A stretch of 64,000 nt of DNA from Syntrophales bacterium (GTDB lineage: Bacteria; Desulfobacterota; Syntrophia; Syntrophales; CG2-30-49-12), in the NCBI GenBank assembly GCA_041648505.1, contig JBAZOY010000006.1:332-64331 (forward strand), given 5' to 3'. A program made the translations under genes and the position numbers. The notes under the pieces are model-generated. The model was not told the DNA's origin. It ran no database searches and saw nothing but the letters and a program-made list of their open reading frames with translations. Positions 28,805 to 51,903 of this stretch are shown here, one piece after another (within the stretch, counting starts at the first letter, position 1; the number at the start of each line of letters is the position of its first letter).

Positions 28805-29495
28805 ATGATCGAACTGAAGAATGCCGGTAAGAAATATCAGCAGGGTGAGCGTGAGGTTCATGCGTTGCGGAATGTTTCTCTCTTTATCAAAAAAAGGTGA
28901 GTTTTTGAGCATCATGGGACCGAGTGGTTCCGGGAAGAGCACGCTCCTGAATCTTATGGGAGGTCTGGACCAGCCGACATCCGGTGAGGTATTTATCGAC
29001 AATAAGCCGCTCCATGGAATCAAGGACGACGAGCTCACCCTTATCAGGCGCAGACGGGTTGGATATATTTTTCAGTTTTTTAACCTTCTCCCTTTGCTCA
29101 CGGCGGCCGAAAACATAGGCTTGCCGCTTTTGCTGGAAGGCATTCCCTTTTCAGAGATCAGACCCAGGGCCGAATTACTCTTGCAGAAAGTTGGTCTGGG
29201 AGAGCGATACGAACACCGGCCGGAACAGCTTTCAGGCGGGGAGATGCAGCGGGTCGCTATTGCCCGTGCACTGATAGCGAGCCCTGCCGTTCTTCTCGCA
29301 GATGAGCCTACCGGCAATCTCGATTCCCATACCAGTGAAGAAATATTCCTCCTCCTAAAATCTTTTAACGAACATGGCCAGACCATCGTGATGGTAACGC
29401 ATGACCCCAAAGCTGCGGCCTACGGCACGCGCATTATCACGCTCAAGGACGGCGCGCTGTCGGAAGATATTTCCATAGGGGGGGCTGCAATATGA
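28805..29495 (+). pseudogene. MacB/LolD-type ABC ATP-binding protein, +1 frameshift in an A7 run (possibly an assembly artefact)
   Basis: MIELKNAGKKYQQGEREVHALRNVSLFIKK is in frame 1 up to A7 (28880-28886). [30 protein letters not shown] continues in the next frame. Confidence 0.8.
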
Positions 29496-32085
29496 ACCTC
29501 GGGAATCTGCTCCGTTACATCAGTCTCAAACACGTAAAGCTTCAGAAAGTGCAGTTGCTTATGGCTATATCCGGCATCTGCCTGGGTGTGGCCGCCATGG
29601 TTTCGATTGATATTGTAAACCGGAGCGTACTCCACTCATTCGAGGATTCCATCAATCACATCACCGGCCGCGCTGCTCTTCAAGTTACCGGCGCGGAATC
29701 GGGATTTCCGGAAGCAATGCTCGAACAGGTTCAAAACGTCCCCGGAGTTGAATATGCTGTGCCTGTGATAGAGACCAACGCCAATCTCTCGGGAGGAAGT
29801 GAACGATCTTTAATGATCCTCGGCGTCGATGTGTTGCAGGACAATCAAATCCGAGACTATGACATTACGGACGAAAGCGCCGATATTCCGGACCCTCTTC
29901 TGTTTCTTGCCAAACGCGATTCCATTCTTATTACCCGCACTATGGCGGAACGTGAAGGAATGAAGATCGACCAGGAGATCAAGGTCCAGACCGTGGCCGG
30001 CATAAAGACGTTCAAGGTGCGAGGTCTTCTCAATCCCGAAGGTCCGGCGAAAGTGGCGGGGGGAGACATCGCGATCATGGATGTCTATGCGGCACAGATG
30101 GCCTTTGGAAAGGAAGGCCGCATCGACCGGATAGATATAAGCTTTTTGCCTGGAGAGAAGCTCGATGTCATGAAGGAGCGCATTCAGGATGTATTTCCGA
30201 AAGGTTACAGTGTGGACACACCGGCCGCAAGGACCAGACAGGTCGAGATGCTTCTCAACCGCTTCCGTAAAAGCATAGGACTCATAAGCTTGATGGCCGT
30301 ATTTGTCGGCATGTACCTCATCTACAACGCGGTTTCTATCTCGGTGGTTCAACGCAGGAAGGAGATCGGCATCCTGCGCGCTCTCGGTGCCCGAAGAGGT
30401 GAGGTCGTAGGGCTTTTCCTGGGAGAGACGATCGCGATCTCCATCCTCGGCTCTCTTATGGGCGTCGTCCTGGGCCTTGTCTTTGCCAAACTGACCATAG
30501 GTGTGGTTGCCCAGAGTGTAACAGAGATGTTTTTAAAGACGTCTGTCAACGGTCTCGCTTTCTCGTGGAAGGATGTTGTCCAGGGTGTGAGTGTCGGAAT
30601 AGTTGCCAGTTTAGCCGCAAGCAGTGTTCCCCGCCGTTTCAAGCGCTCGAATCACACCCATTTCCGCCATACGTGCCGTTCCCTATGCGGGAGATGGAAA
30701 GCTGTTCTCCAGAAAGATAAAAATCGCCTCGGCTCTCTCCATTCTCATATCCGCTCTCATCTTTGCAGCCTATAAGACGGTGGATGTCTCCTCGGCCATC
30801 AGAAGTTCCGCTACCATATTCGCATCGGTGATCTTTCTCATGCTCGGCGTATCGCTCTTTACACCGGTTTTCCTCAAGTGGTTTACAACCTTTTTCCCGT
30901 ATCTTCTTTTCATCGCGCCTCGGTGTGGAAGGCAAGCTCGCGGGTCTGAACCTGCAAAAAAACATATCGAGGAACGCCGTGGCGGTCGCCGCCATTTTTT
31001 TCAGCATCGCCTTGTTTGTCAGTTCGGCAAATGTGGTCAATACCGCGCGAAAATCCATCTTTGACTGGCTGGATTCCATAGTGCGCGCTGATATCCTGGT
31101 GAGTTCCGGACACCCTCTGGCTACAGGTGGAACTCCCTTCATTCCCATGCCCCCCGAAATCTTGAAAGAGATCGAGGAAATACCGGGCGTGCTCTCGGCG
31201 GAACCATACCGTAAAGGATACTTGAACTACAATGGAAGGAAAGTCCTGCTTGAGATATTTGACGTGGCTCTTAGAATGGAATACTGCCCGGGCATGTTCA
31301 CGGAAGGCACCAGAGAGGAGGTGGTCCGGCTGGTACCCGGCAGGGACAATATCTTCGTGAACGAAGGATTTGCAGCCAGATACCGGATAAAGCCGGGAGA
31401 CTCTCTCCTTCTTCCAACTCCCAACGGGATGGTGCGCTTCGGAGTGGCCGCCATCGCCGTAAGCTACTCTTCGGACTCGGGCGTTGTCTGGATGGATATA
31501 AACACCTATCGTCGCCACTGGCAGGATAATCTGGTTGATATCTACGAGGTGCGTGTTAAATCAGGGGAGGATATCTCAAGCGTGCGCGGGGCGATTCTGA
31601 AGAAAATGGGTAAAGAGAGAAAGCTGTTTGCCCTGGACGCCGCCGATTTCAAAGTGGAGGTAAAAAAGATACTTAACCGTTCTTTTGCTGTAAGCAATGC
31701 GGTTAACATCATTACCTTGATTATTGCGGGCTTCGGAATCGTGGTCACACTCTTTGCCTCCGTTCTCGAGCGGACACGCGAAATTGGAGTTTTGCGATCT
31801 ATAGGTATGAAGAGAAGACAGGTCTCCGGCGTCGTGATCATCGAGTCGGCACTGATCGGCGTTGCGGGAGGGTTACTAGGTTCAGTTACGGGGATGCTGG
31901 TAGGCTGGCTGGAACTTGAGGGTTTTTTCCGGCCCGATTTCGGCGCAAGCCTTACCTACCATATTCATTATGCGTCCATTGCCTGGGCGCTTTTGCTCTC
32001 CGCCGGGCTTTCGGCTATTGCTGGTCTCTATCCCGCACGTCGGGCGGCGAAAACTAACATCGTAGAGGCACTGGCTTATGAATAG
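29492..32085 (+). pseudogene. Double-FtsX-domain ABC permease (about 860 aa) interrupted by two frameshifts
   Basis: Three consecutive frames carry one continuous protein. The junctions are near 30621 (LAAS / VFPAVSSARITPISAIR) and 30891-30898 (a T5C3 run; ..TTFF / RIFFSSRLGVEGKLAGLNL). Confidence 0.8.
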
Positions 32086-34461: not shown

Positions 34462-34977
34462 CTATTTTTCGATTCCTTCTCTTGCCTGCACTCCGTTCTG
34501 ATAGTAATGCTTGATCTCTCTCATCTCCGTTACCAGATCGGCCTCGGCGATAACCCTTGGATCGGCCTTTCTTCCGGTAATGACCAGTTCCACATTTTCC
34601 GGTTTTGCATGAATCAGATCCAGAAGATCATCCACTGAAAATAATTCGAAGTAGGTGGCGATATTGGCCTCGTCAAGGATGATCAGTTGATATTGACCAC
34701 TGCACATGATATCCCATACCTCTTTAAGTCCTTCCCGGGCAAGCTTCCTGTCCTCTTCGTCCGGTGCTCGGGTGATAAAACAGTCCCGGCCGTACTGTTT
34801 GATCACAATGGAATCGGCAAATTTTTTCAGAGAAATCAATTCGCTGTATTTCATTCCCTTGACAAATTGAGCGATATACACCTTGAGATCAGCACCGACG
34901 GCGCGTAGCGCGAGACCCAGCGCTGCAGTTGTCTTTCCTTTCCCGTCTCCTGTGTAAACCTGAACGTACCCTTTCAT
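34462..34977 (-). CDS. cobO: Cob(I)yrinic acid a,c-diamide adenosyltransferase
   Basis: 171 aa with YTGDGKGKTTAALGLALRA and DEANIA motifs. Confidence 0.9.
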   Translation of the reverse strand: MKGYVQVYTGDGKGKTTAALGLALRAVGADLKVYIAQFVKGMKYSELISLKKFADSIVIKQYGRDCFITRAPDEEDRKLAREGLKEVWDIMCSGQYQLIILDEANIATYFELFSVDDLLDLIHAKPENVELVITGRKADPRVIAEADLVTEMREIKHYYQNGVQAREGIEK

Positions 34978-35122
34978 TTTTATCTCCCTTTGATTTTTAA
35001 TATCCCAAAAAGTAAGGATTCAAAGCATAAAGACCAACCGTTTTACAGAGAAGACATCATTAAGGTGGTGGAAGTTCTAGAAACGCTCCATATCAACCAG
35101 ACCCGGATAGTTTTATGCTCTG

Positions 35123-35794
35123 TTACATTAATTCACATTCCGATATGTCTAGAAAGGAAAGTTCCCCCCGGGGAATCTTTTCAGATTTCAGAATCTTCAA
35201 TTTTTTCTTGAACATGGGTCCCGATAGCACAAAGGTATGATATTCACCACCCTCCCCGGAGATATCAACACCGCTGACCTTGGAGATTTCTGTAACGAAA
35301 TCGTTATCAATAATGCGTCCCAGCCATTCCTGCCCCAGCAAATCATTTCTTGTAGCTACAATAACGGTTTCAAATCCTGTTTCTAACAATTCCTGTATTA
35401 AATGTTCTCTATTCGTCTCTCCCCAGAGAGGTAAGACAGCCTTAATCCCCGATTCTCTACTGACCCGTTCCACCCATTCACGGTGCTCTTCAAGGTCAAT
35501 ATCTCCAAATATACCTACCTCAATCTCTTTTTCTTTAAGAGAGGAGAGGGTCTTCTTAAATTCTGCCTCATAGCTTTCCCACGAACTCCTGACCTGAACA
35601 ACAGGAAGCCCCATTGCTTCCCCTTGCATCTGTAAGATGTTTGTCCTGACGCCGTGAGAGCGACAACGGGTACCATCTTCTATGATCATATTCAGGAGGC
35701 AGGTAACATTAAAGTCCTCTCTTGCCCTGTAGCAGGCGAGGGCACTATCCTTTCCCCCGCTCCACGAAACAAATGCTTTTAACTTGTTTTCCAT
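35123..35794 (-). CDS. PP-loop ATPase of the DUF71 / Dph6 (diphthine-ammonia ligase)-like family
   Basis: SWSGGKDSALACY PP-loop; 223 aa. Overlaps the upstream gene by 16 nt. Confidence 0.7.
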   Translation of the reverse strand: MENKLKAFVSWSGGKDSALACYRAREDFNVTCLLNMIIEDGTRCRSHGVRTNILQMQGEAMGLPVVQVRSSWESYEAEFKKTLSSLKEKEIEVGIFGDIDLEEHREWVERVSRESGIKAVLPLWGETNREHLIQELLETGFETVIVATRNDLLGQEWLGRIIDNDFVTEISKVSGVDISGEGGEYHTFVLSGPMFKKKLKILKSEKIPRGELSFLDISECELM

Positions 35795-36717
35795 TCAGTG
35801 ACCTCCCCACATAGCTTGCAGTGAAATGCGCTTGAGTCCATTCCTGTGCCACAACAATTGCATATCTTTTCCCCTTCTTGAGGGGCGGGGATCTCCCCCA
35901 CCACCTCCCGATAGATATGATAGTAATAGAAATGTTCTTTGTTCCAGAATTTTATGGGAAACTTATCTTTGCCTTCAGCGAATTCTTCATCGGAGACCAT
36001 TGAGGGTATGATCCTCCTGAGTTCCGTCATACCGGAACCGTATTCCAGGGGTCTCTTCCCCTGCCAGAGCAGCTCCGGGGGCAGTACGCCGGCAAAGGCT
36101 TCTCTCAGTATCCATTTTCCCCAAGGCTTGTTCCCATCTCTTCTAACCTTAAGATCGAGAGGGATCTCCTGGCTGAATCCCATAAATTCCCTGTCCAGAA
36201 AGGGTTGTCTGATCTCAATTCCAAAGGCTTCTCCGATCTTATTCGAACTGAATTGCATGGCGGAATGCATTCGCTTCATATACTGTTCCAGGTCTTTCAT
36301 CTTGAGCATGAAATCATAGCCGGCAAAGATCTCATCACTTCCGTCACCCGTCATCATGCTTCTGATACCCTTATCTTTCGCCAACTTCAGACCAAGGTAA
36401 ACAGGCAGGTCATTGGGAAGGGCGGGATCGAAGCTTTTGAGTATCTTTATGACTTCAGGGATTGCGGCGATGGCGTCTTCCACCGTGACCGTCACATGGA
36501 GATAATCTATTCCGAGAAAATCCGCCACCCGTGCAGAGTAGCTTTTATCCTCCCCATAAGATTCGAGACCTATGGAGATAGCTTTGGCACCTTTTGCGTA
36601 TGCCGCTGCAAGAGAAGAATCCAGGCCACCGGACAGGAGAATCCCTTCGGTTCGATTTCTATCAACCGATTCGGCAAATCTTTTTTTTAATTCAAGGGAA
36701 ATATCACTTATAATCAT
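35779..36717 (-). CDS. Asparagine synthetase-like amidoligase, synthetase domain only, with C-terminal zinc ribbon
   Basis: LLSGGLDSSLAAAYA PP-loop. No N-terminal glutaminase domain. C-terminal CNCC-x11-CKLC. Confidence 0.7.
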   Translation of the reverse strand: MIISDISLELKKRFAESVDRNRTEGILLSGGLDSSLAAAYAKGAKAISIGLESYGEDKSYSARVADFLGIDYLHVTVTVEDAIAAIPEVIKILKSFDPALPNDLPVYLGLKLAKDKGIRSMMTGDGSDEIFAGYDFMLKMKDLEQYMKRMHSAMQFSSNKIGEAFGIEIRQPFLDREFMGFSQEIPLDLKVRRDGNKPWGKWILREAFAGVLPPELLWQGKRPLEYGSGMTELRRIIPSMVSDEEFAEGKDKFPIKFWNKEHFYYYHIYREVVGEIPAPQEGEKICNCCGTGMDSSAFHCKLCGEVTEWKTS

Positions 36718-38765
36718 ATCTCGTAGCCTACACTGAGAAAGATCGATCGGCCGGCCCCCGGATAAGAACAGAGCGTTCCTGTACCTGTATAATCATAGAA
36801 AGTATTTACATAGGTTTCGTATCCTTTATTAAACAGGTTGTTACCCGTAAGTGAAACTTTCCAGTGGTCGGAAACTCGCTGCTCGATTTTAATGTCCGTT
36901 GTCCAATACGATGACATAGTCCGGGAAGGATTGATATCAGTGTCGTTATCATATAGCCCTGGTCGCTTACTTACATAGTTAAGTGTGGCGGTTGCATTAA
37001 GACCGAATTGAGTCCACCAGGTCAGACTTCCCTTGAACTGATCATCAGGGGTATAGAGTGCTTGACGTTTAGTGCCGCTGTTTTTGTTTTCTTTCGCGTT
37101 AGTGTTTGTGTAGCTGATACCCAAAGTCAGATTATAAAACGGGCCTATTTTTGTTCCAAGCTCCCAGCCATCAGCCTCATAGCTATCGAGGTTTTGTGGT
37201 CTATAGAAGAAACTGCTATCGGGAACCCAGCGAATCTTATCGTCAATATCCCATTTGAAATACGAAAGGGTAATGAATAATTTTTCGTCGAGAAGAGTTT
37301 GTTCAATGGTTGCGTCTGTATGCCATCCTGTTTCAGGTTTTAGATTCGGGTTTCCTTGAGCACCCATTCCCCATCCCCAATCTTCATAAGGCCAGAAGAG
37401 GTCGTTAGGTGTAGGTGCCTTGAAATGCTTTCCTCGACTAAATTTCAGAACTGTGTCTTGAAGAGGGTTTACGATCAGGCCGAGCCTGTAAATGTCTTCG
37501 TATCCGAAAGTAGAATGGTTTTCGTGTCTTAAGCCGGCTATTGTTTTTACGTACTTGCAGGGACGATACTGGGCTTCCGCATACAGGCCATTGGAAAAAA
37601 GATGGGCTTTACTTTTTCCGCTCGATGCCGCAACTTCATTACCATTATTATCCAGAGCTGCATTTTCACTTTTCCAGTCATAATCTCTATAATCTGCGCC
37701 TAACAAAAGACTTGCGCCTTCAAAGGGTTTTATATTTGCGTTGCCCTCAATTGTTGAAACCTCATTGGTTACCCATGACTTACTGCCAGGGACGCCCCCG
37801 GCCCACGCATCGTAGTAACGCATGTAGTTGTAGTTCTCCATATATGTATAATCGCCTCGAACTTTGAGTTCCAGCCAGTCTGCGGGACGACTCTCGATAT
37901 TAAGCACCAGGTGGGCATCTTCGTCACCGCCTTCATCAAGCGTACTCGCTGCGTTACTGCTATAAACCTGTACCCCGGTGGCGTAAAAATTTTGTGTTCC
38001 CGAAGGCGGCTCTACGCCAGGTCTGCCGTATTTTCGATCAATGTAATCAGCATAAAGGCTCACATCCAGAATATCTCCCTTATCATAAACCAGTTTCAGA
38101 GAGGCATCATTATGGGTAAGGTCGCTGTTATCTCGAAAACCATCGGTTTCCTTTCGACCTAATGTGAAATAATATCCAAAATCCTCTGTAAGAAACATTC
38201 CTTGTTCGGCGGATAACTGATAAGTGTCCTCAGTGCCGTAACCAGCGGTTACTTTTAAATCCATTTTATCGTGTTTCGGACTTTTTGTTATAATATTGAC
38301 GGTTCCTCCCATAGCGCCGGTGCCATAGAGGAGAGAGCCTGACCCTTTCACCACCTCTATGCGTTCAATGTTGCTGAGTGGTATTTTAGATACGTCAGCA
38401 ACTCCGAGAGACGGTGAAATAAGACTTGTTCCGTTAATAAAAACCTGTGTTGAATCACCACTCATACCCCTGATATGGATCTCCTGAGCAGCGCCTCCAT
38501 AATTTCCGTACGTTCTCCAGTCTATGCCCGGTTCGTTCGCCAAAAGCTCACCTATGCTGTCTGCTGTGGATTCCTGAATATCAATTTCGTTTTTCAGGAT
38601 CACGGCATTGGCAATATCTTTTCGTTTTTCTGCAGTTTTGGTTGCACTAACCACAACTTCCTCCAGAGTTACCGGTTTACCTTCTTCCTGTGCAGAAACA
38701 GGGGCGGGTAAAATTAAAAATATACAAACAGATAGCACGACGATACAACTTGACAATTTCTTCAT
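36714..38765 (-). CDS. TonB-dependent outer-membrane receptor (probable corrinoid receptor)
   Basis: Signal peptide, TonB-box-like LEEVVVSAT, plug plus 22-strand barrel length. A cobalamin riboswitch lies upstream. Confidence 0.85.
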   Translation of the reverse strand: MKKLSSCIVVLSVCIFLILPAPVSAQEEGKPVTLEEVVVSATKTAEKRKDIANAVILKNEIDIQESTADSIGELLANEPGIDWRTYGNYGGAAQEIHIRGMSGDSTQVFINGTSLISPSLGVADVSKIPLSNIERIEVVKGSGSLLYGTGAMGGTVNIITKSPKHDKMDLKVTAGYGTEDTYQLSAEQGMFLTEDFGYYFTLGRKETDGFRDNSDLTHNDASLKLVYDKGDILDVSLYADYIDRKYGRPGVEPPSGTQNFYATGVQVYSSNAASTLDEGGDEDAHLVLNIESRPADWLELKVRGDYTYMENYNYMRYYDAWAGGVPGSKSWVTNEVSTIEGNANIKPFEGASLLLGADYRDYDWKSENAALDNNGNEVAASSGKSKAHLFSNGLYAEAQYRPCKYVKTIAGLRHENHSTFGYEDIYRLGLIVNPLQDTVLKFSRGKHFKAPTPNDLFWPYEDWGWGMGAQGNPNLKPETGWHTDATIEQTLLDEKLFITLSYFKWDIDDKIRWVPDSSFFYRPQNLDSYEADGWELGTKIGPFYNLTLGISYTNTNAKENKNSGTKRQALYTPDDQFKGSLTWWTQFGLNATATLNYVSKRPGLYDNDTDINPSRTMSSYWTTDIKIEQRVSDHWKVSLTGNNLFNKGYETYVNTFYDYTGTGTLCSYPGAGRSIFLSVGYEI

Positions 38766-38899
38766 TTTTTCTATTTCTCCTTCTTATAATTTTCAGTCTT
38801 GTAAAGAATTTTTTTTCTATTTCCCTTACAAATTACCCTTGTAAGGATGGTTCTTTTTTATCGCCTTCTCTCATATAACCTCCTCTCCCCCTCGGGATA

Positions 38900-39060
38900 T
38901 ATTTTGTCAGATGAGTTTTCTGGCTTGCGGTTACATTTCTGCCGCCATGTCTTCCTAATCATGTTTCAAGAAATCAGTGACGTCATATGGGCTTTGTTCC
39001 GCCTACAGTTGCGGGGCAGCGCCGGATTTTGACCGGCTTCCTCGTTCTGACAGTTTTGCT
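38900..39060 (-). promoter_or_regulatory. Cobalamin riboswitch (RS2)
   Basis: Minus-strand read: GGAAGCCGGTCAAAATCCGGCGCTGCCCCGCAACTGTA ... CACTG ... AGGAAG ... AGCCAGAAAACTCATC (B12-box-like). Its 5' part overlaps the last ~58 nt of the upstream ATPase ORF. Confidence 0.75.
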
Positions 39061-39833
39061 GCAACGAGTGTCACTCTCGGCAATCCGGCCTGCGGATTCC
39101 TGTCCACTAATACTTCTGTTCCATAAACCTTCCTTATATTTGATTCACTGATCACCTCTTCGGGAGTGCCAATACAGTGAATGTTTCCCCTGTCAAGAAG
39201 TATGATCCGGTCACAGTAAAGTGACGCTAAATTGATATCATGGGTAACGGAGATAACGGTCAGGCCATCTTCTTTATTCAGGGTCTTTACTAAATTGAAG
39301 AAGTTCACCTGATGCTTGATATCAAGAAAGGATGTAGGTTCATCGAGAAGCACAATCTGTGGTTCCTGGGTCAGCGCGCGTGCGATTAAAACTCTCTGCC
39401 GCTCACCACCACTCAACTCACCGATACTTCTGCAGGCAAAGCCGAGGGTATCTGTCATCTCCATTGATCTATGGGCTATTTCGTAGTCTTTTTTTCCCTC
39501 AAGCCTCAACTTTCCCAGATGGGGTGCCCTCCCCATTAAAACTATCTCCTCAACAGAGAAGGGAAATATCAGGGGAGCCTCCTGCGGGACAACGGCAACA
39601 AGCCTGGCCAGGGCATCCCTTTTCATTTCTTTGATATTAATGCCGTTGATAAAGACAGTTCCCTCCTGGGGAACTAAAATCCTGTTAATAATCTTGAGGA
39701 GGGTTGTTTTACCGGAGGCGTTTGGTCCTATTATTCCCCAAAACTCTCCCTTGCCGATGGCGAAAGAGATGTTGTTAAGTACCCATTCTTTCGTGTATCT
39801 GAATCCAATTTCTTTTGCCTGCACGATCGTCAT
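39003..39833 (-). CDS. Fe3+-siderophore/cobalamin-type ABC ATP-binding protein (BtuD/FecE-like)
   Basis: GPNASGKTT, LSGGERQR, VLLDEPT. Start chosen at MTIVQAKE, which overlaps the permease stop (ATGA). Confidence 0.85.
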   Translation of the reverse strand: MTIVQAKEIGFRYTKEWVLNNISFAIGKGEFWGIIGPNASGKTTLLKIINRILVPQEGTVFINGINIKEMKRDALARLVAVVPQEAPLIFPFSVEEIVLMGRAPHLGKLRLEGKKDYEIAHRSMEMTDTLGFACRSIGELSGGERQRVLIARALTQEPQIVLLDEPTSFLDIKHQVNFFNLVKTLNKEDGLTVISVTHDINLASLYCDRIILLDRGNIHCIGTPEEVISESNIRKVYGTEVLVDRNPQAGLPRVTLVAAKLSERGSRSKSGAAPQL

Positions 39834-40849
39834 GGCCGAGATATCCTCCTGCGGAGCAGATAGATGAAGTATGGAGCGCCGCACATGGCGGTGATAACCC
39901 CCACTGGCAATTCCGTATAGGGGATTATTGTCCTGGCGATAGTATCGGCTGCGATCAGAAAGGATGCCCCGAAGAGAAGAGAGGCGGGCAGCAACAGCCT
40001 GTGATCGGAACCGAAGAGCATTCTCATAATATGTGGGATAATAAGCCCTACAAAACCAATGATCCCACTGAATGAGACAGCCAGTCCGGTTATCATGGAG
40101 GCGGCAAGAAAGAGTATTATTTTTGTCCTTTCCACATTTACCCCCAGCTGCGTAGCAGTTTCCTCACCTGTGACGATCAGGTTCAGGGACCTTGCTTCGA
40201 TATATATGACGGCAAACCCGACCATCAGAAAAAATCCTGTCAGTATAATTTCGCTGTTGCCGGCGAAACTTAGATTTCCCATTAACCAGAATGTTATGTT
40301 ATGTAAGTCGGCATTGGTGGAAAGGGAAATAAAAAACATAATGATAGACGAAAAAAAAGCGTTGACGATAACGCCCGCAAGGAGGAGGGTGTTGGGATTC
40401 GTTCTACCAATGGCAAAAACAAGGACAACAGTGATAATAGCTCCAAGAAAAGCCAGTCCTGGAATGCTGAATGGGAGGAAACCTATACCGGTAACAATAC
40501 CAATAATGGCCCCGACAGCCGAACCTCCGGATATTCCCAGGATGTATGGATCAGCCAGGGGATTGCGCAGGAGGGCCTGGAAGACAACACCGGCAGTGGA
40601 AAGGGCGGCACCAACGATACCGGCAAAGATGATCCTGGGTAAGCGAATCGAAAAGATTATGGTCTTTTCTACCGGCGTCAATCCGGTAAAACCTTCTTGC
40701 CATCCGCACAGGATTTCCCTGAGGCTTTCGATGATGCCGATCTTTGCTGTTCCAAGAAGCAGAGATACAAGAACAACAACAAGCAAGACACCAGCCAGCA
40801 AAATGTTAATCTTAATTATCCGGGATAGAGTTACCGAAGATTTTATCAT
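39830..40849 (-). CDS. FecCD/BtuC-family ABC permease
   Basis: About 340 aa, polytopic, with the typical FecCD C-terminal region (TGLAVSFSGIIGFVGLIIPHIMR). Confidence 0.85.
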   Translation of the reverse strand: MIKSSVTLSRIIKINILLAGVLLVVVLVSLLLGTAKIGIIESLREILCGWQEGFTGLTPVEKTIIFSIRLPRIIFAGIVGAALSTAGVVFQALLRNPLADPYILGISGGSAVGAIIGIVTGIGFLPFSIPGLAFLGAIITVVLVFAIGRTNPNTLLLAGVIVNAFFSSIIMFFISLSTNADLHNITFWLMGNLSFAGNSEIILTGFFLMVGFAVIYIEARSLNLIVTGEETATQLGVNVERTKIILFLAASMITGLAVSFSGIIGFVGLIIPHIMRMLFGSDHRLLLPASLLFGASFLIAADTIARTIIPYTELPVGVITAMCGAPYFIYLLRRRISRP

Positions 40850-41009
40850 CACACAGAACCCCACATAATTTAAAAATAGCGGGAGAAGCTTGCCTATGGC
40901 AAAAGGATGGTTCCTTGACCCAAGAGTGCTTCAGTGGTTTCCTGTGGATGAACAACAGGGCAGGTAAATTCAAAGAATTTCTCATGGCACACCTCCCGCG
41001 AGGAATATG

Positions 41010-41200
41010 GAATGGATAGGTCTTCCGGCTCAAGGCTATCTACTTGTCCGCCTTCCCACCATGGTATCACCCATGACAGTGGCTTAAAAAGTCATTAGTC
41101 GCTATTTGAAATTTTCGACTCGTGACTTTTACTGGACTTTCGCTCCCTTCACGGCTGCGGGGCAGCTGGGGATTTACACCCCTCTTCCTCACATCCACTC
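41010..41200 (-). promoter_or_regulatory. Cobalamin riboswitch (RS1)
   Basis: Minus-strand read: GGAAGAGGGGTGTAAATCCCCAGCTGCCCCGCAGCCGTGAAGGGAG ... GCCACTG ... GGGAAGGC ... GAGCCGGAAGACCTATCC (B12 box). Confidence 0.8.
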
Positions 41201-41427
41201 AATTATGATCTAACTTAGCAAAAGGTAGGTTAAAAATCGTAGGATGTCAAGAAAAAAACAACTAGTCTTGTAAGTAGATAATTCATATGGATTAATATGT
41301 TATTGGTCGGTGAAAGGTGAAGCGGAGAAGGTTGTTAGGGTTGCCGGTGTGGCGCTACGCTGCGACGGCATGGTGAAAAAACTATTGATCCGTGCCTGCT
41401 GAATCCAATTTGCAAAGCTCTCGCCCA

Positions 41428-41922
41428 TCATTTTCTTTTTATTGATAAATGTTTCAGGAGTCCCCCGTCTCGTATAAGTTCCTGCATGAAAGGCGGGATG
41501 GGCTGAATGGACAGGGGGGGCATTTTCGATCCTACGATGGTGATCTTTCCTGCATCTCCATCCACATCAATCTCCTGGCCTTCCGATACCAGGTCCCACA
41601 TATCCTTCGATTCGAAAATAGGGAGGCCCATATTGAACGCATTCCGGTAAAATATCCGGGCGAAGCTCCTGGCAACGATGCAGGAAATCCCAGCGGCCTT
41701 AATGGCTATGGGGGCGTGTTCTCTTGAAGAGCCACAGCCGAAGTTTTCTCCTGCTACGATGATATCCCCGACACTCACTTTTCTCACAAATTCCCGGTCA
41801 AGACCCTCCATGCAGTGGGAGGCAAGGACTTCCGGATCAAACGTAGTCAAACAGCGTGCCGGGATAATGACATCGGTATCTATATTATCTCCAAACTTCC
41901 AGACTTTTCCTCTGTATTTCAT
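41428..41922 (-). CDS. leuD: 3-isopropylmalate dehydratase small subunit
   Basis: 164 aa with GENFGCGSSREHA. Confidence 0.9.
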   Translation of the reverse strand: MKYRGKVWKFGDNIDTDVIIPARCLTTFDPEVLASHCMEGLDREFVRKVSVGDIIVAGENFGCGSSREHAPIAIKAAGISCIVARSFARIFYRNAFNMGLPIFESKDMWDLVSEGQEIDVDGDAGKITIVGSKMPPLSIQPIPPFMQELIRDGGLLKHLSIKRK

Positions 41923-41930
41923 TAAGAGTC

Positions 41931-43198
41931 CTAACCTCCTGTAATTTCATTCGGTCCTGCAATACGTCCCATTATTGCAGATGCGGCGGCCACCGCCGGG
42001 TTGGTTAAGTACACCTCACTCGTCGGATGGCCCATGCGACCGATAAAGTTTCTATTCGTTGTCGCGACGGCCCTTTCACCTTCTGCAAGTATACCCATAT
42101 ACCCGCCCAAACAGGGACCGCAGGTTGGGGGGCTGATCACCGCCCCGGCATCTATAAATGTTTCCAAGAGTCCTTCTTGCAAAGCGGTCCTGTAAACCTG
42201 TGATGTAGCGGGGATGACGATCAGGCGGACATACGGGGCTGTTTTTCTCTTTTTCAGGACAGAAGCGGCTATCCGCAGGTCTTCTATTCGTCCGTTTGTA
42301 CAGGAGCCGATTACCACTTGATCGATCATTATATTTCCCACTTGGCTGATTCCCCTTACGTTGGAAGGGAGCGACGGAAAGGCTACCTGCGGTTCGATTT
42401 TGCTAATGTCGATTTCCTGTTGTCGGCGTAGACAGCATCGGGGTCCGAGTCGTATATGGTGTATGCACGTTTGGCCTTGCTCTCAGCATATACCTTCGTA
42501 ACTTTATCAGGGATGAATATGCCGTTTTTTGCGCCTGCCTCGATGACCATGTTGGCGATTGTAAATCGGTCTGCCATGCCGAGTTGGCTTGTCGCTTCGC
42601 CGGTGAACTCCATAGTGCGGTAGAGGGCTCCGTCCACGCCTATTTTACCGATGATGTAAAGAATAACGTCCTTTCCCGACACCCACTTATTCAAGCGTCC
42701 GGAAAGGATGATCTTCATGGTCTCGGGAACCTTGAACCAGACCTCTCCGGTCAGCATGGCAGCGGCCAGATCGGTGCTGCCCACGCCGGTGGCGAAAGCC
42801 CCGAGGGCACCGTAGGTGCATGTATGGCTGTCAGCACCAATAATGAGGTCCCCGGGCAGGACTATGCCCTGTTCGGGAAGAAGGGCGTGTTCGATTCCGA
42901 CATTTCCACCTTCATAATAATGAATAATTCCCTGTTCTTTTGCAAATGTACGCATGACCTTGCATTGTTGGGCTGATTCAATGTCTTTAGTGGGGGTAAA
43001 ATGGTCCGCTACCAGAACCACCCTTTCCCTGTCAAAGACCTTCTCTCCACCAGCCTTCCGGAACTCGGCAATGGCCATAGGTGCCGTTATATCATTTCCC
43101 AGAGCGATATCTACTTTAGCGTTGATAAGCATTCCGGGATGCAATTCATGCATATCCGCATGCCGGCAAAGAATCTTTTCGGTTATAGTCATTCCCAT
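41931..43198 (-). pseudogene. leuC: 3-isopropylmalate dehydratase large subunit, split by a -1 frameshift (probably an assembly artefact)
   Basis: The N-terminal part ends ..[48 protein letters not shown] continues in another frame, with the junction near 42411-42420. Fe-S Cys ligands are present. Confidence 0.85.
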
Positions 43199-51099: not shown

Positions 51100-51903
51100 C
51101 TATCTCTCCCCGTTTCCAGCGAGCAGCCCCAGGGTATTAATATTTTTTAACATCTGCCATAAATCTTTTTCCGAATGGGATTCAATGGTAATAATAGGAT
51201 TCAGGCCCCGCCCCCGAATTATTTGGAAAAAGTTATGGAAGGGGAAACTTCCCTCTCCCACAGGGAGATGTTCATCGGTAGTCCCCCCGTTATCATGTAG
51301 GTGAATCTGACCCAGACGGTATGCCAGTTTATCCATCCATGCCTCTAAAGGTACTCGGGAAAACGCGTTAAAATGCCCGGTATCAAAGCAAAAACGAATA
51401 TGGGGAGATGCAAGGACATCGAGGAGGAGAGTCAGGTGGTGGGGGTTCGTTTCATAGACATTCTCAAGGGTGATAATGGTCTCCATCTCCCTCGCCATGG
51501 TTAAAAAGCGTTTCCATGTATCTATGCTGTTCTCCAACCACATCTGCTCACCGGAGACATAGTACCTCTCATCAAAGGAGGGATGGCAGACTACAGAAAG
51601 TGGCTGGAAAAAAGGGACAAGATCAAATACCTGATGCAGACGATCTATAGTTGCCTGCCGAATCTTCGGATCAATGGCGCCGGGCCTTAAATCCATGAAA
51701 GGGGCGTGAAAGGTGATTGTTAATCCCGCTTCCCTCAAACTATCGGCGACCTTTAAAAAATCTTCTCTCTTCACCTGGTCGAGGACAAGATAATTGAAAC
51801 CGATCTCCGGGTTGATGCCTTCCTTTATCACTGTAGGAAGGAGTTTATCAAGGAGGAGATCGAAAGGGATATGTACCTGTACTTTCTTTAAAATCTCATA
51901 CAT
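51100..51903 (-). CDS. Sugar phosphate isomerase/epimerase (xylose isomerase-like TIM barrel)
   Basis: 267 aa with pattern ..HAPF...CHP...FDTGH..HLHDN.. typical of the AP_endonuc_2 fold. Confidence 0.65.
   Translation of the reverse strand: MYEILKKVQVHIPFDLLLDKLLPTVIKEGINPEIGFNYLVLDQVKREDFLKVADSLREAGLTITFHAPFMDLRPGAIDPKIRQATIDRLHQVFDLVPFFQPLSVVCHPSFDERYYVSGEQMWLENSIDTWKRFLTMAREMETIITLENVYETNPHHLTLLLDVLASPHIRFCFDTGHFNAFSRVPLEAWMDKLAYRLGQIHLHDNGGTTDEHLPVGEGSFPFHNFFQIIRGRGLNPIITIESHSEKDLWQMLKNINTLGLLAGNGER

Follow-up and report, generated by a model that had tools for sequence, protein, structure and literature searches.

Organization of the operon

The window analyzed here, a 64,000-nucleotide (nt) stretch of contig JBAZOY010000006.1 from a Syntrophales bacterium, contains a riboswitch-preceded operon in which a TonB-dependent receptor gene and the adenosyltransferase gene cobO flank the genes of two PP-loop enzymes, an AsnB-like protein and a DUF71 protein. 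The AsnB-like proteins are an undescribed B12-linked family and represent the new part of the locus. All features of the operon lie on the minus strand. A cobalamin riboswitch aptamer (riboswitch 2, 38893..39093; Rfam RF00174, 71.1 bits, E 1.5e-15, gathering score 31.5) ends 127 nt before the start of the receptor gene (36714..38765; 683 residues, PF07715 and PF00593, that is Plug and barrel). This gene is followed by that of a 312-residue AsnB-type PP-loop synthetase with a C-terminal four-Cys Zn ribbon and no glutaminase domain (35779..36717; PF00733 only), by that of a 223-residue DUF71/COG2102 PP-loop ATPase of the DUF71-B12 type (35123..35794; PF01902, 187 bits) and by cobO/btuR, encoding the ATP:corrinoid adenosyltransferase (34462..34977; PF02572, 211 bits; PRK05986 above cut-off). 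The receptor and AsnB-like genes overlap by 4 nt, the AsnB-like and DUF71 genes by 16 nt, and 145 nt separate the DUF71 gene from cobO. The initial annotation had read this gene order and these spacings from the DNA alone: the order is confirmed by the Rfam and profile matches, and the spacings are exact.

A second cobalamin riboswitch (riboswitch 1, 40998..41213; RF00174, 54.8 bits) lies upstream of genes for a btuC-like ATP-binding cassette (ABC) permease (39830..40864; PF01032, best NCBIfam match BtuC PRK09535, below cut-off) and a btuD-like ABC ATPase (39003..39833; PF00005, best match the corrinoid ABC ATPase PRK09536, below cut-off), so that btuC and btuD stand between both riboswitches, which are the only two RF00174 matches of the whole genome. 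The last ~90 nt of btuD are located inside the aptamer of riboswitch 2. Therefore, transcription of the unit probably begins at riboswitch 1, with btuC-btuD included. The btuD frame reads through the aptamer with the same tail, GAAPQL, in five loci (window 39003-39093; L037, L041, L042, L092), and of 18 related loci, 12 have the btuD stop within the riboswitch match; translation of btuD could influence aptamer folding. No U-tailed terminator was found on the minus strand between the riboswitch 2 aptamer and the receptor gene, and a promoter scan did no better than chance.

The top NCBIfam match of the receptor is the BtuB equivalog TIGR01779, yet the score of 167 bits does not reach the cut-off of 599.7. 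Its B12 specificity thus rests on context, by which it is probably a corrinoid receptor.

The AsnB-like protein

The AlphaFold model of the AsnB-like protein (predicted local distance difference test score, pLDDT, 91) is closest to Escherichia coli AsnB (PDB 1CT9; template modelling (TM) score 0.74), and the next closest folds are AsnB-fold enzymes such as beta-lactam synthetase. The N-terminal class II glutaminase domain of AsnB is missing, and the DNA upstream is the receptor gene. The initial annotation had taken the protein for an adenylate-forming enzyme, and the residues expected of such an active site are indeed intact: the PP-loop SGGLD is kept together with D128, E129 and K221, which correspond to the catalytic AsnB residues D351, E352 and K449. 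The AsnB segment YDCARANK (D384/R387), which binds aspartate, is replaced, and the equivalent of AsnB E348 is D in 94% of the AsnB-like family versus E in 97% of glutaminase-bearing AsnB. The C-terminus carries the motif CxxC-x10-CxxC, whose four Cys are invariant over 38 homologs.

The protein scores far under the AsnB profile cut-offs (167 versus 499 bits), and in a tree computed without the Zn ribbon the members, all without glutaminase, group as a single clade separate from AsnB proteins that have it, with moderate support (FastTree 0.86). The closest named homolog (72%) comes from a Syntrophales bacterium of the same family as the host, and the matches in the ESM Atlas are unnamed asparagine-synthase clusters only, many of them archaeal. 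A CbiA P-loop domain together with GATase_3 is present in neither the AsnB-like nor the DUF71 protein.

The host genome holds a separate full-length AsnB. The gene of a full-length AsnB is clustered with those of two MttB-like methyltransferases and a corrinoid protein (L044:1055-7739, G000 C63). An Rfam PYLIS_3 match falls within one gene of this cluster, the frame of which has no in-frame stop, and two other loci (L043 and L045) likewise have PYLIS_3 matches near AsnB.

The DUF71 protein

The DUF71-B12 subgroup of DUF71/COG2102 (e.g. PF0295) was defined in 2012 by de Crecy-Lagard et al., who found 75 of 102 members adjoining B12 transporters and a His in place of Glu188 (PMC3541065). The window protein has the PF01902 domain with an SGGKD PP-loop and a conserved H48, adjoins B12 transport and salvage genes, and carries His at the E188 position in its motif EGGEYHT, as do all 91 readable DUF71 motifs beside AsnB-like homologs. 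The Asn position of the motif ENGE(F/Y)H is Gly in the window protein and varies among the linked homologs (N 29, G 22, K 15, A 10, others 15). The window protein is set apart from Dph6 (TIGR03679) by His188 and by a score of 139.6 bits against a cut-off of 197.3. Judged by its His188 and its neighbors, it matches the DUF71-B12 group, already a published prediction. The initial annotation regarded both PP-loop enzymes as not known from corrinoid metabolism. This does not hold for DUF71, which was linked to B12 salvage in 2012 (PMC3541065). For the AsnB-like protein, no relevant paper placing it in B12 salvage or fused to MMACHC was found in the literature searched, which lay outside most subscription journals.

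A B12-repressed Thermosipho open reading frame for an ATP-binding protein of one of these families or of another, THA_1086, has also been reported (PMC3509894).

Linkage to B12 genes and domain fusions

A core B12 gene or riboswitch was found in 30 of 32 genome loci of the AsnB-like family and in none of 20 loci of full-length AsnB taken as controls, which upholds the linkage to riboswitches and salvage genes elsewhere that the initial annotation had proposed to check. B12 genes likewise occur in 36 of 40 metagenome loci of at least 8 kb. In total, the same genes are clustered in ~110 related loci, which are not independent of each other, and in 0 of the 20 control loci. Their clustering is not chance. 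The AsnB-like gene may stand beside cobD (often directly after it), cobO, cobS or the receptor gene; as gene order varies this widely, the B12 link has survived rearrangement. DUF71 is present in 28 of the 32 genome loci, directly downstream in 24. The two enzymes are not an obligate pair: DUF71 is missing in 4 of these loci, and the AsnB-like gene in 44 of 60 DUF71 genomes.

Several other genes recur in these neighborhoods. In five of the B12 loci (L112:5477-6883, L053, L088, L103, L123), the peptide-modifying radical S-adenosylmethionine (SAM) protein CbpB (TIGR04163, 706 bits) is encoded close to the AsnB-like protein. An unnamed radical SAM protein of ~250 residues recurs next to the genes of the two PP-loop enzymes in B12 clusters, namely in L126:7679-8446 and in six more loci, among them the archaeal L201. 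The remodelling phosphodiesterase CbiR (NF041277, 255 bits) shares operons with the AsnB-like gene (L166:9581-10459, L005, L006, L131), and metE or fragments of it lie upstream of that gene in the B12-linked loci L001, L003, L004, L048 and L057.

The family is also fused to domains of cobalamin metabolism. In oomycetes (Aphanomyces, Saprolegnia, Pythium, Phytophthora and others) it follows a CblC/MMACHC domain, which is recognized by PF16690 in one member (44.8 bits, cut-off 27), by a profile match to human MMACHC (E 1e-9) and by a fold match to the CblC structure 5UOS (E 2e-8); single open frames from read assemblies span the junction of the two parts. Members from Thermoprotei are fused to a CobY-like nucleotidyltransferase and adjoin cobS, and another member is fused to PF04071 and adjoins cbiB. 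The named eukaryotic matches comprise chytrids, Blastocladiomycota, Kickxellomycotina, Mortierellomycotina, Umbelopsis, Basidiobolus, oomycetes and one dictyostelid; no Dikarya are among the eukaryotic matches listed ahead of the first archaeal ones. These names agree with what has been reported on the distribution of B12 use (PMC8085122). Saprolegniales have a second, unfused copy besides the CblC fusion (P0391, P0438, P0443, P0446).

It could be that the AsnB-like protein has no part in corrinoid chemistry and acts as an ammonia-dependent asparagine synthetase, or as a peptide cyclase working with the TonB receptor: its best family and fold matches are asparagine synthetases, CbpB is nearby in the five loci mentioned and some distant members have no B12 context. 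However, the aspartate-binding segment and the E348 position have changed, the host has its own full-length AsnB and no CbpB was found in its genome, and the score of the protein against the lasso peptide cyclase family NF033535 is 38 bits, the cut-off being 525. Such a role would also leave the B12 linkage and the CblC fusion unexplained, and we regard it as highly improbable.

B12 genes of the host and of related genomes

The host genome is 99.25% complete. It contains cobU, cobT, cobS and btuF outside the operon and at least nine B12-binding domains above cut-off, and no cbiP, cbiB, cbiZ, cbiC, cbiK, CobD ortholog or CbiR was found in it. Its only cbiA-like gene (402 bits; L198:9563-11095, G000 C3) was rejected as a corrinoid gene: it is placed between dsrAB and dsrMKJOP, the DsrN position, and is therefore probably dsrN. 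Automated B12 pathway calls would miscount this gene. Thus the check whether the genome lacks cbiA or cbiP, suggested earlier, revealed neither a cbiP nor a true cbiA. A TIM-barrel protein at window 51100-51903 was considered as CbiR and discarded (74.5 versus 105 bits, no BLAST match to true CbiR). The gene content suggests a B12-requiring host that salvages cobinamide and is unable to use cobyric acid by known routes, since any route to cobyric acid would dead-end where no cbiB is found. For the same reason the substrate of the enzymes in the host would have to bear the aminopropanol linker already.

Co-occurrence was assessed in 301 genomes of the phylum, 19 of which carry the AsnB-like family. 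Only one of these 19 has cbiP, compared to 172 of the 282 others, and the family is present in none of the 156 genomes having both cbiB and cbiP. Among the carriers, 16 have DUF71 and 14 have cbiB, in all 14 cases without cbiP. Genomes with cbiB and without cbiP have no known source of the CbiB substrate, and 21 of these 23 carry the AsnB-like family or DUF71 (20 of the 23 carry DUF71). When all 25 carrier genomes are considered, cbiB is found in 18 and not in the other seven, the host (99% complete) included. CbiZ occurs in four carriers, and within the set of 301 genomes it accompanies DUF71 in three of these. Three carriers have retained cbiC and have no cbiP, and neither cbiB nor cbiP was found in 27 DUF71 genomes besides the host.

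Such a distribution could mean that the pair strictly replaces CbiP, using imported cobyrinic acid a,c-diamide to make cobyric acid for CbiB, and that the operon described here is a remnant after the loss of cbiB. The presence of cbiB in the same locus in many relatives is in line with this, and so are the 14 carriers with cbiB without cbiP and the three that keep cbiC. However, both genes are intact with conserved catalytic residues in a host where no cbiB or cobD ortholog was found, seven carriers have no detected cbiB, and the oomycete and fungal members are not expected to assemble the nucleotide loop. We consider strict replacement rather unlikely.

The 2012 paper proposed, as a prediction only, that DUF71-B12 is a CbiZ-like hydrolase (PMC3541065). 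It would cleave pseudo-B12 or cobinamide to cobyric acid, with the AsnB-like protein as an accessory. Published data speak for this in that DUF71-B12 is anti-correlated with CbiZ and clustered with cbiB (PMC3541065), and DUF71 is found in 20 of the 23 genomes with cbiB without cbiP. Against it, one of the reviewers raised the objection that PP-loop enzymes make amide bonds and do not hydrolyse them (PMC3541065). Additionally, CbiZ itself is present in the four carriers, and cobyric acid leads no further in the absence of CbiB, a protein found neither in the host nor in the 27 other cbiP-less DUF71 genomes. This route is in our judgment quite unlikely. Taken together, the seven carriers without cbiB and the four with cbiZ speak against the view that a CbiZ-like role, or a strict replacement of CbiP, explains everything.

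A further possibility is that one enzyme ligates an organic amine, for example aminopropanol onto the f-carboxyl of cobyric acid, and so bypasses CbiB. The AsnB-like protein has no glutaminase domain, its next closest folds include beta-lactam synthetase and other AsnB-fold enzymes that use organic amines, its gene often directly follows cobD, and no cbiB was found in the host. However, the presence of cbiB in 18 of the 25 carriers means that the distribution is not complementary, the host genome has no detected CobD ortholog, and the CblC fusion better suits complete cobamides. We consider a ligation of this kind very unlikely.

Apart from the operon, a leuC-like gene of the window (41428-43198) is split over two frames, 42383-43198 and 41931-42341, which may reflect a frameshift or an error in the assembly, and an ABC permease gene at window 29492-32085 is split over frames in the same manner.

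Re-amidation of corrinoids as the favored role

On balance, we favor the reading that the AsnB-like protein carries out an ammonia-dependent re-amidation of side-chain-deficient corrinoids, and we hold it with modest confidence. It builds on the B12 linkage, the intact adenylation site, the anti-correlation with cbiP, the independence from cbiB and the fusions to cobalamin-handling domains. The simplest substrate common to a cbiB-less bacterium and a eukaryote with CblC is a linker-bearing corrinoid short of one or more side-chain amides, and this is why re-amidation is preferred. The initial annotation had offered re-amidation as an example, and it stands as the most economical reading, while the reaction itself, with its substrate, nitrogen donor and regiospecificity and the division of labor between the AsnB-like and DUF71 proteins, is something that we infer.

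Cobalamin riboswitches allow expression when B12 is scarce, and AsnB-type and DUF71-type enzymes adenylate a carboxylate and then displace AMP with an amine. The operon would accordingly serve corrinoid uptake and salvage in a bacterium unable to build the corrin ring. Under B12 scarcity the riboswitches would permit its expression, the receptor and BtuCD would import corrinoids, CobO would adenosylate them, and CobU, CobT and CobS, encoded elsewhere, would complete the cofactor; the genes are observed, their functions follow from family knowledge. The AsnB-like protein would adenylate a free side-chain carboxylate of a cobinamide or cobamide that had been taken up under-amidated or deamidated, with cleavage of ATP to AMP and pyrophosphate, and then amidate this carboxylate with free ammonia, which is the suggested donor because the protein has no glutaminase domain. 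It would thus serve scavenged material as CbiP serves de novo producers. DUF71-B12 probably catalyzes the same reaction, either at different positions of the ring or with a different form of the corrinoid. Where a genome has an orphan cbiB, re-amidation of this kind could complete cobyric acid.

The b-, d- and e-monocarboxylic acids are known hydrolysis products of B12. B12 damaged in a side chain, as the c-lactone, is present in natural material and acts as an inhibitor of B12 enzymes (PMC4042564).

Several points weigh against this picture. The anti-correlation with cbiP is confounded with a salvaging lifestyle, and its nominal p of 1e-6 overstates the case because the 19 carriers span only 10 families. 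No recurrent nitrogen-donor (glutaminase) partner was found among the neighbors of the AsnB-like loci, and the frequency of deamidated corrinoids in sediments was not found in the literature searched. Two distant members, probably thaumarchaeal, adjoin rpo6/alba and no B12 genes (L205:7001-8101, L207:7001-7936). As to the eukaryotic members, the lists are top matches and not a census, the window protein is 29% identical to the oomycete fusion, no higher than to ordinary AsnB, and the monophyly of the wider family joining the window protein and the eukaryotic fusions is moderately supported (Shimodaira-Hasegawa-like approximate likelihood ratio test, SH-aLRT, 88; ultrafast bootstrap, UFBoot, 64).

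A broader proposal, which we put forward tentatively and as possible rather than probable, is that the glutaminase-less AsnB-like/Zn-ribbon family repairs cobamides in bacteria, archaea and eukaryotes by restoring amides to damaged B12, and that oomycetes couple it to CblC and B12-using fungi have retained it. If so, it would add to B12 metabolism a repair step that has yet to be described for this cofactor. The CblC fusion extends the question of the reaction, raised for DUF71-B12 in 2012, to eukaryotes. Should re-amidation prove true, the range of damaged or incomplete B12 open to salvagers would exceed what current pathway maps allow for, and predictions from genomes of which organisms rely on which others for B12 would be affected.

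Comparison with known systems

The synthetase domain of E. coli AsnB and the window protein have the fold and the PP-loop in common, and D351, E352 and K449 have counterparts in the latter. The window protein differs in having no glutaminase, an added four-Cys Zn ribbon, D in place of E348, a replaced aspartate segment and a B12 context. Its relation to CbiP/CobQ and CbiA/CobB is the reverse: the proposed outcome, amidation of corrin side-chain carboxylates, would be common and the distribution is nearly complementary to that of cbiP, whereas fold and chemistry are unrelated, and the window pair is found in salvagers and not in de novo producers. CbiP/CobQ and CbiA/CobB are P-loop, glutamine-dependent enzymes forming an acyl-phosphate, in contrast to the acyl-adenylate of the PP-loop type.

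CbiZ and CbiR also act on imported corrinoids in salvage operons, and CbiR is encoded in four of the related loci; they are, however, hydrolases that remove the lower loop, and neither was found in the host genome. The AsnB-DUF71 fusions of some archaea, such as Methanohalophilus mahii (PMC3541065), join the same two domain types in one unit, but they carry a glutaminase and have been discussed for diphthamide synthesis, while the window genes are separate and without glutaminase. The DUF71-B12 proteins have in common with the window DUF71 protein the bacterial PF01902 PP-loop, the B12 transport and salvage neighbors and the His at the E188 position. The window protein departs from them in its motif, EGGEYH instead of ENGEF/YH (a motif that varies among the neighboring DUF71 genes except for its invariant His), and in a host without the cbiB that the proposed CbiZ-like role needs.

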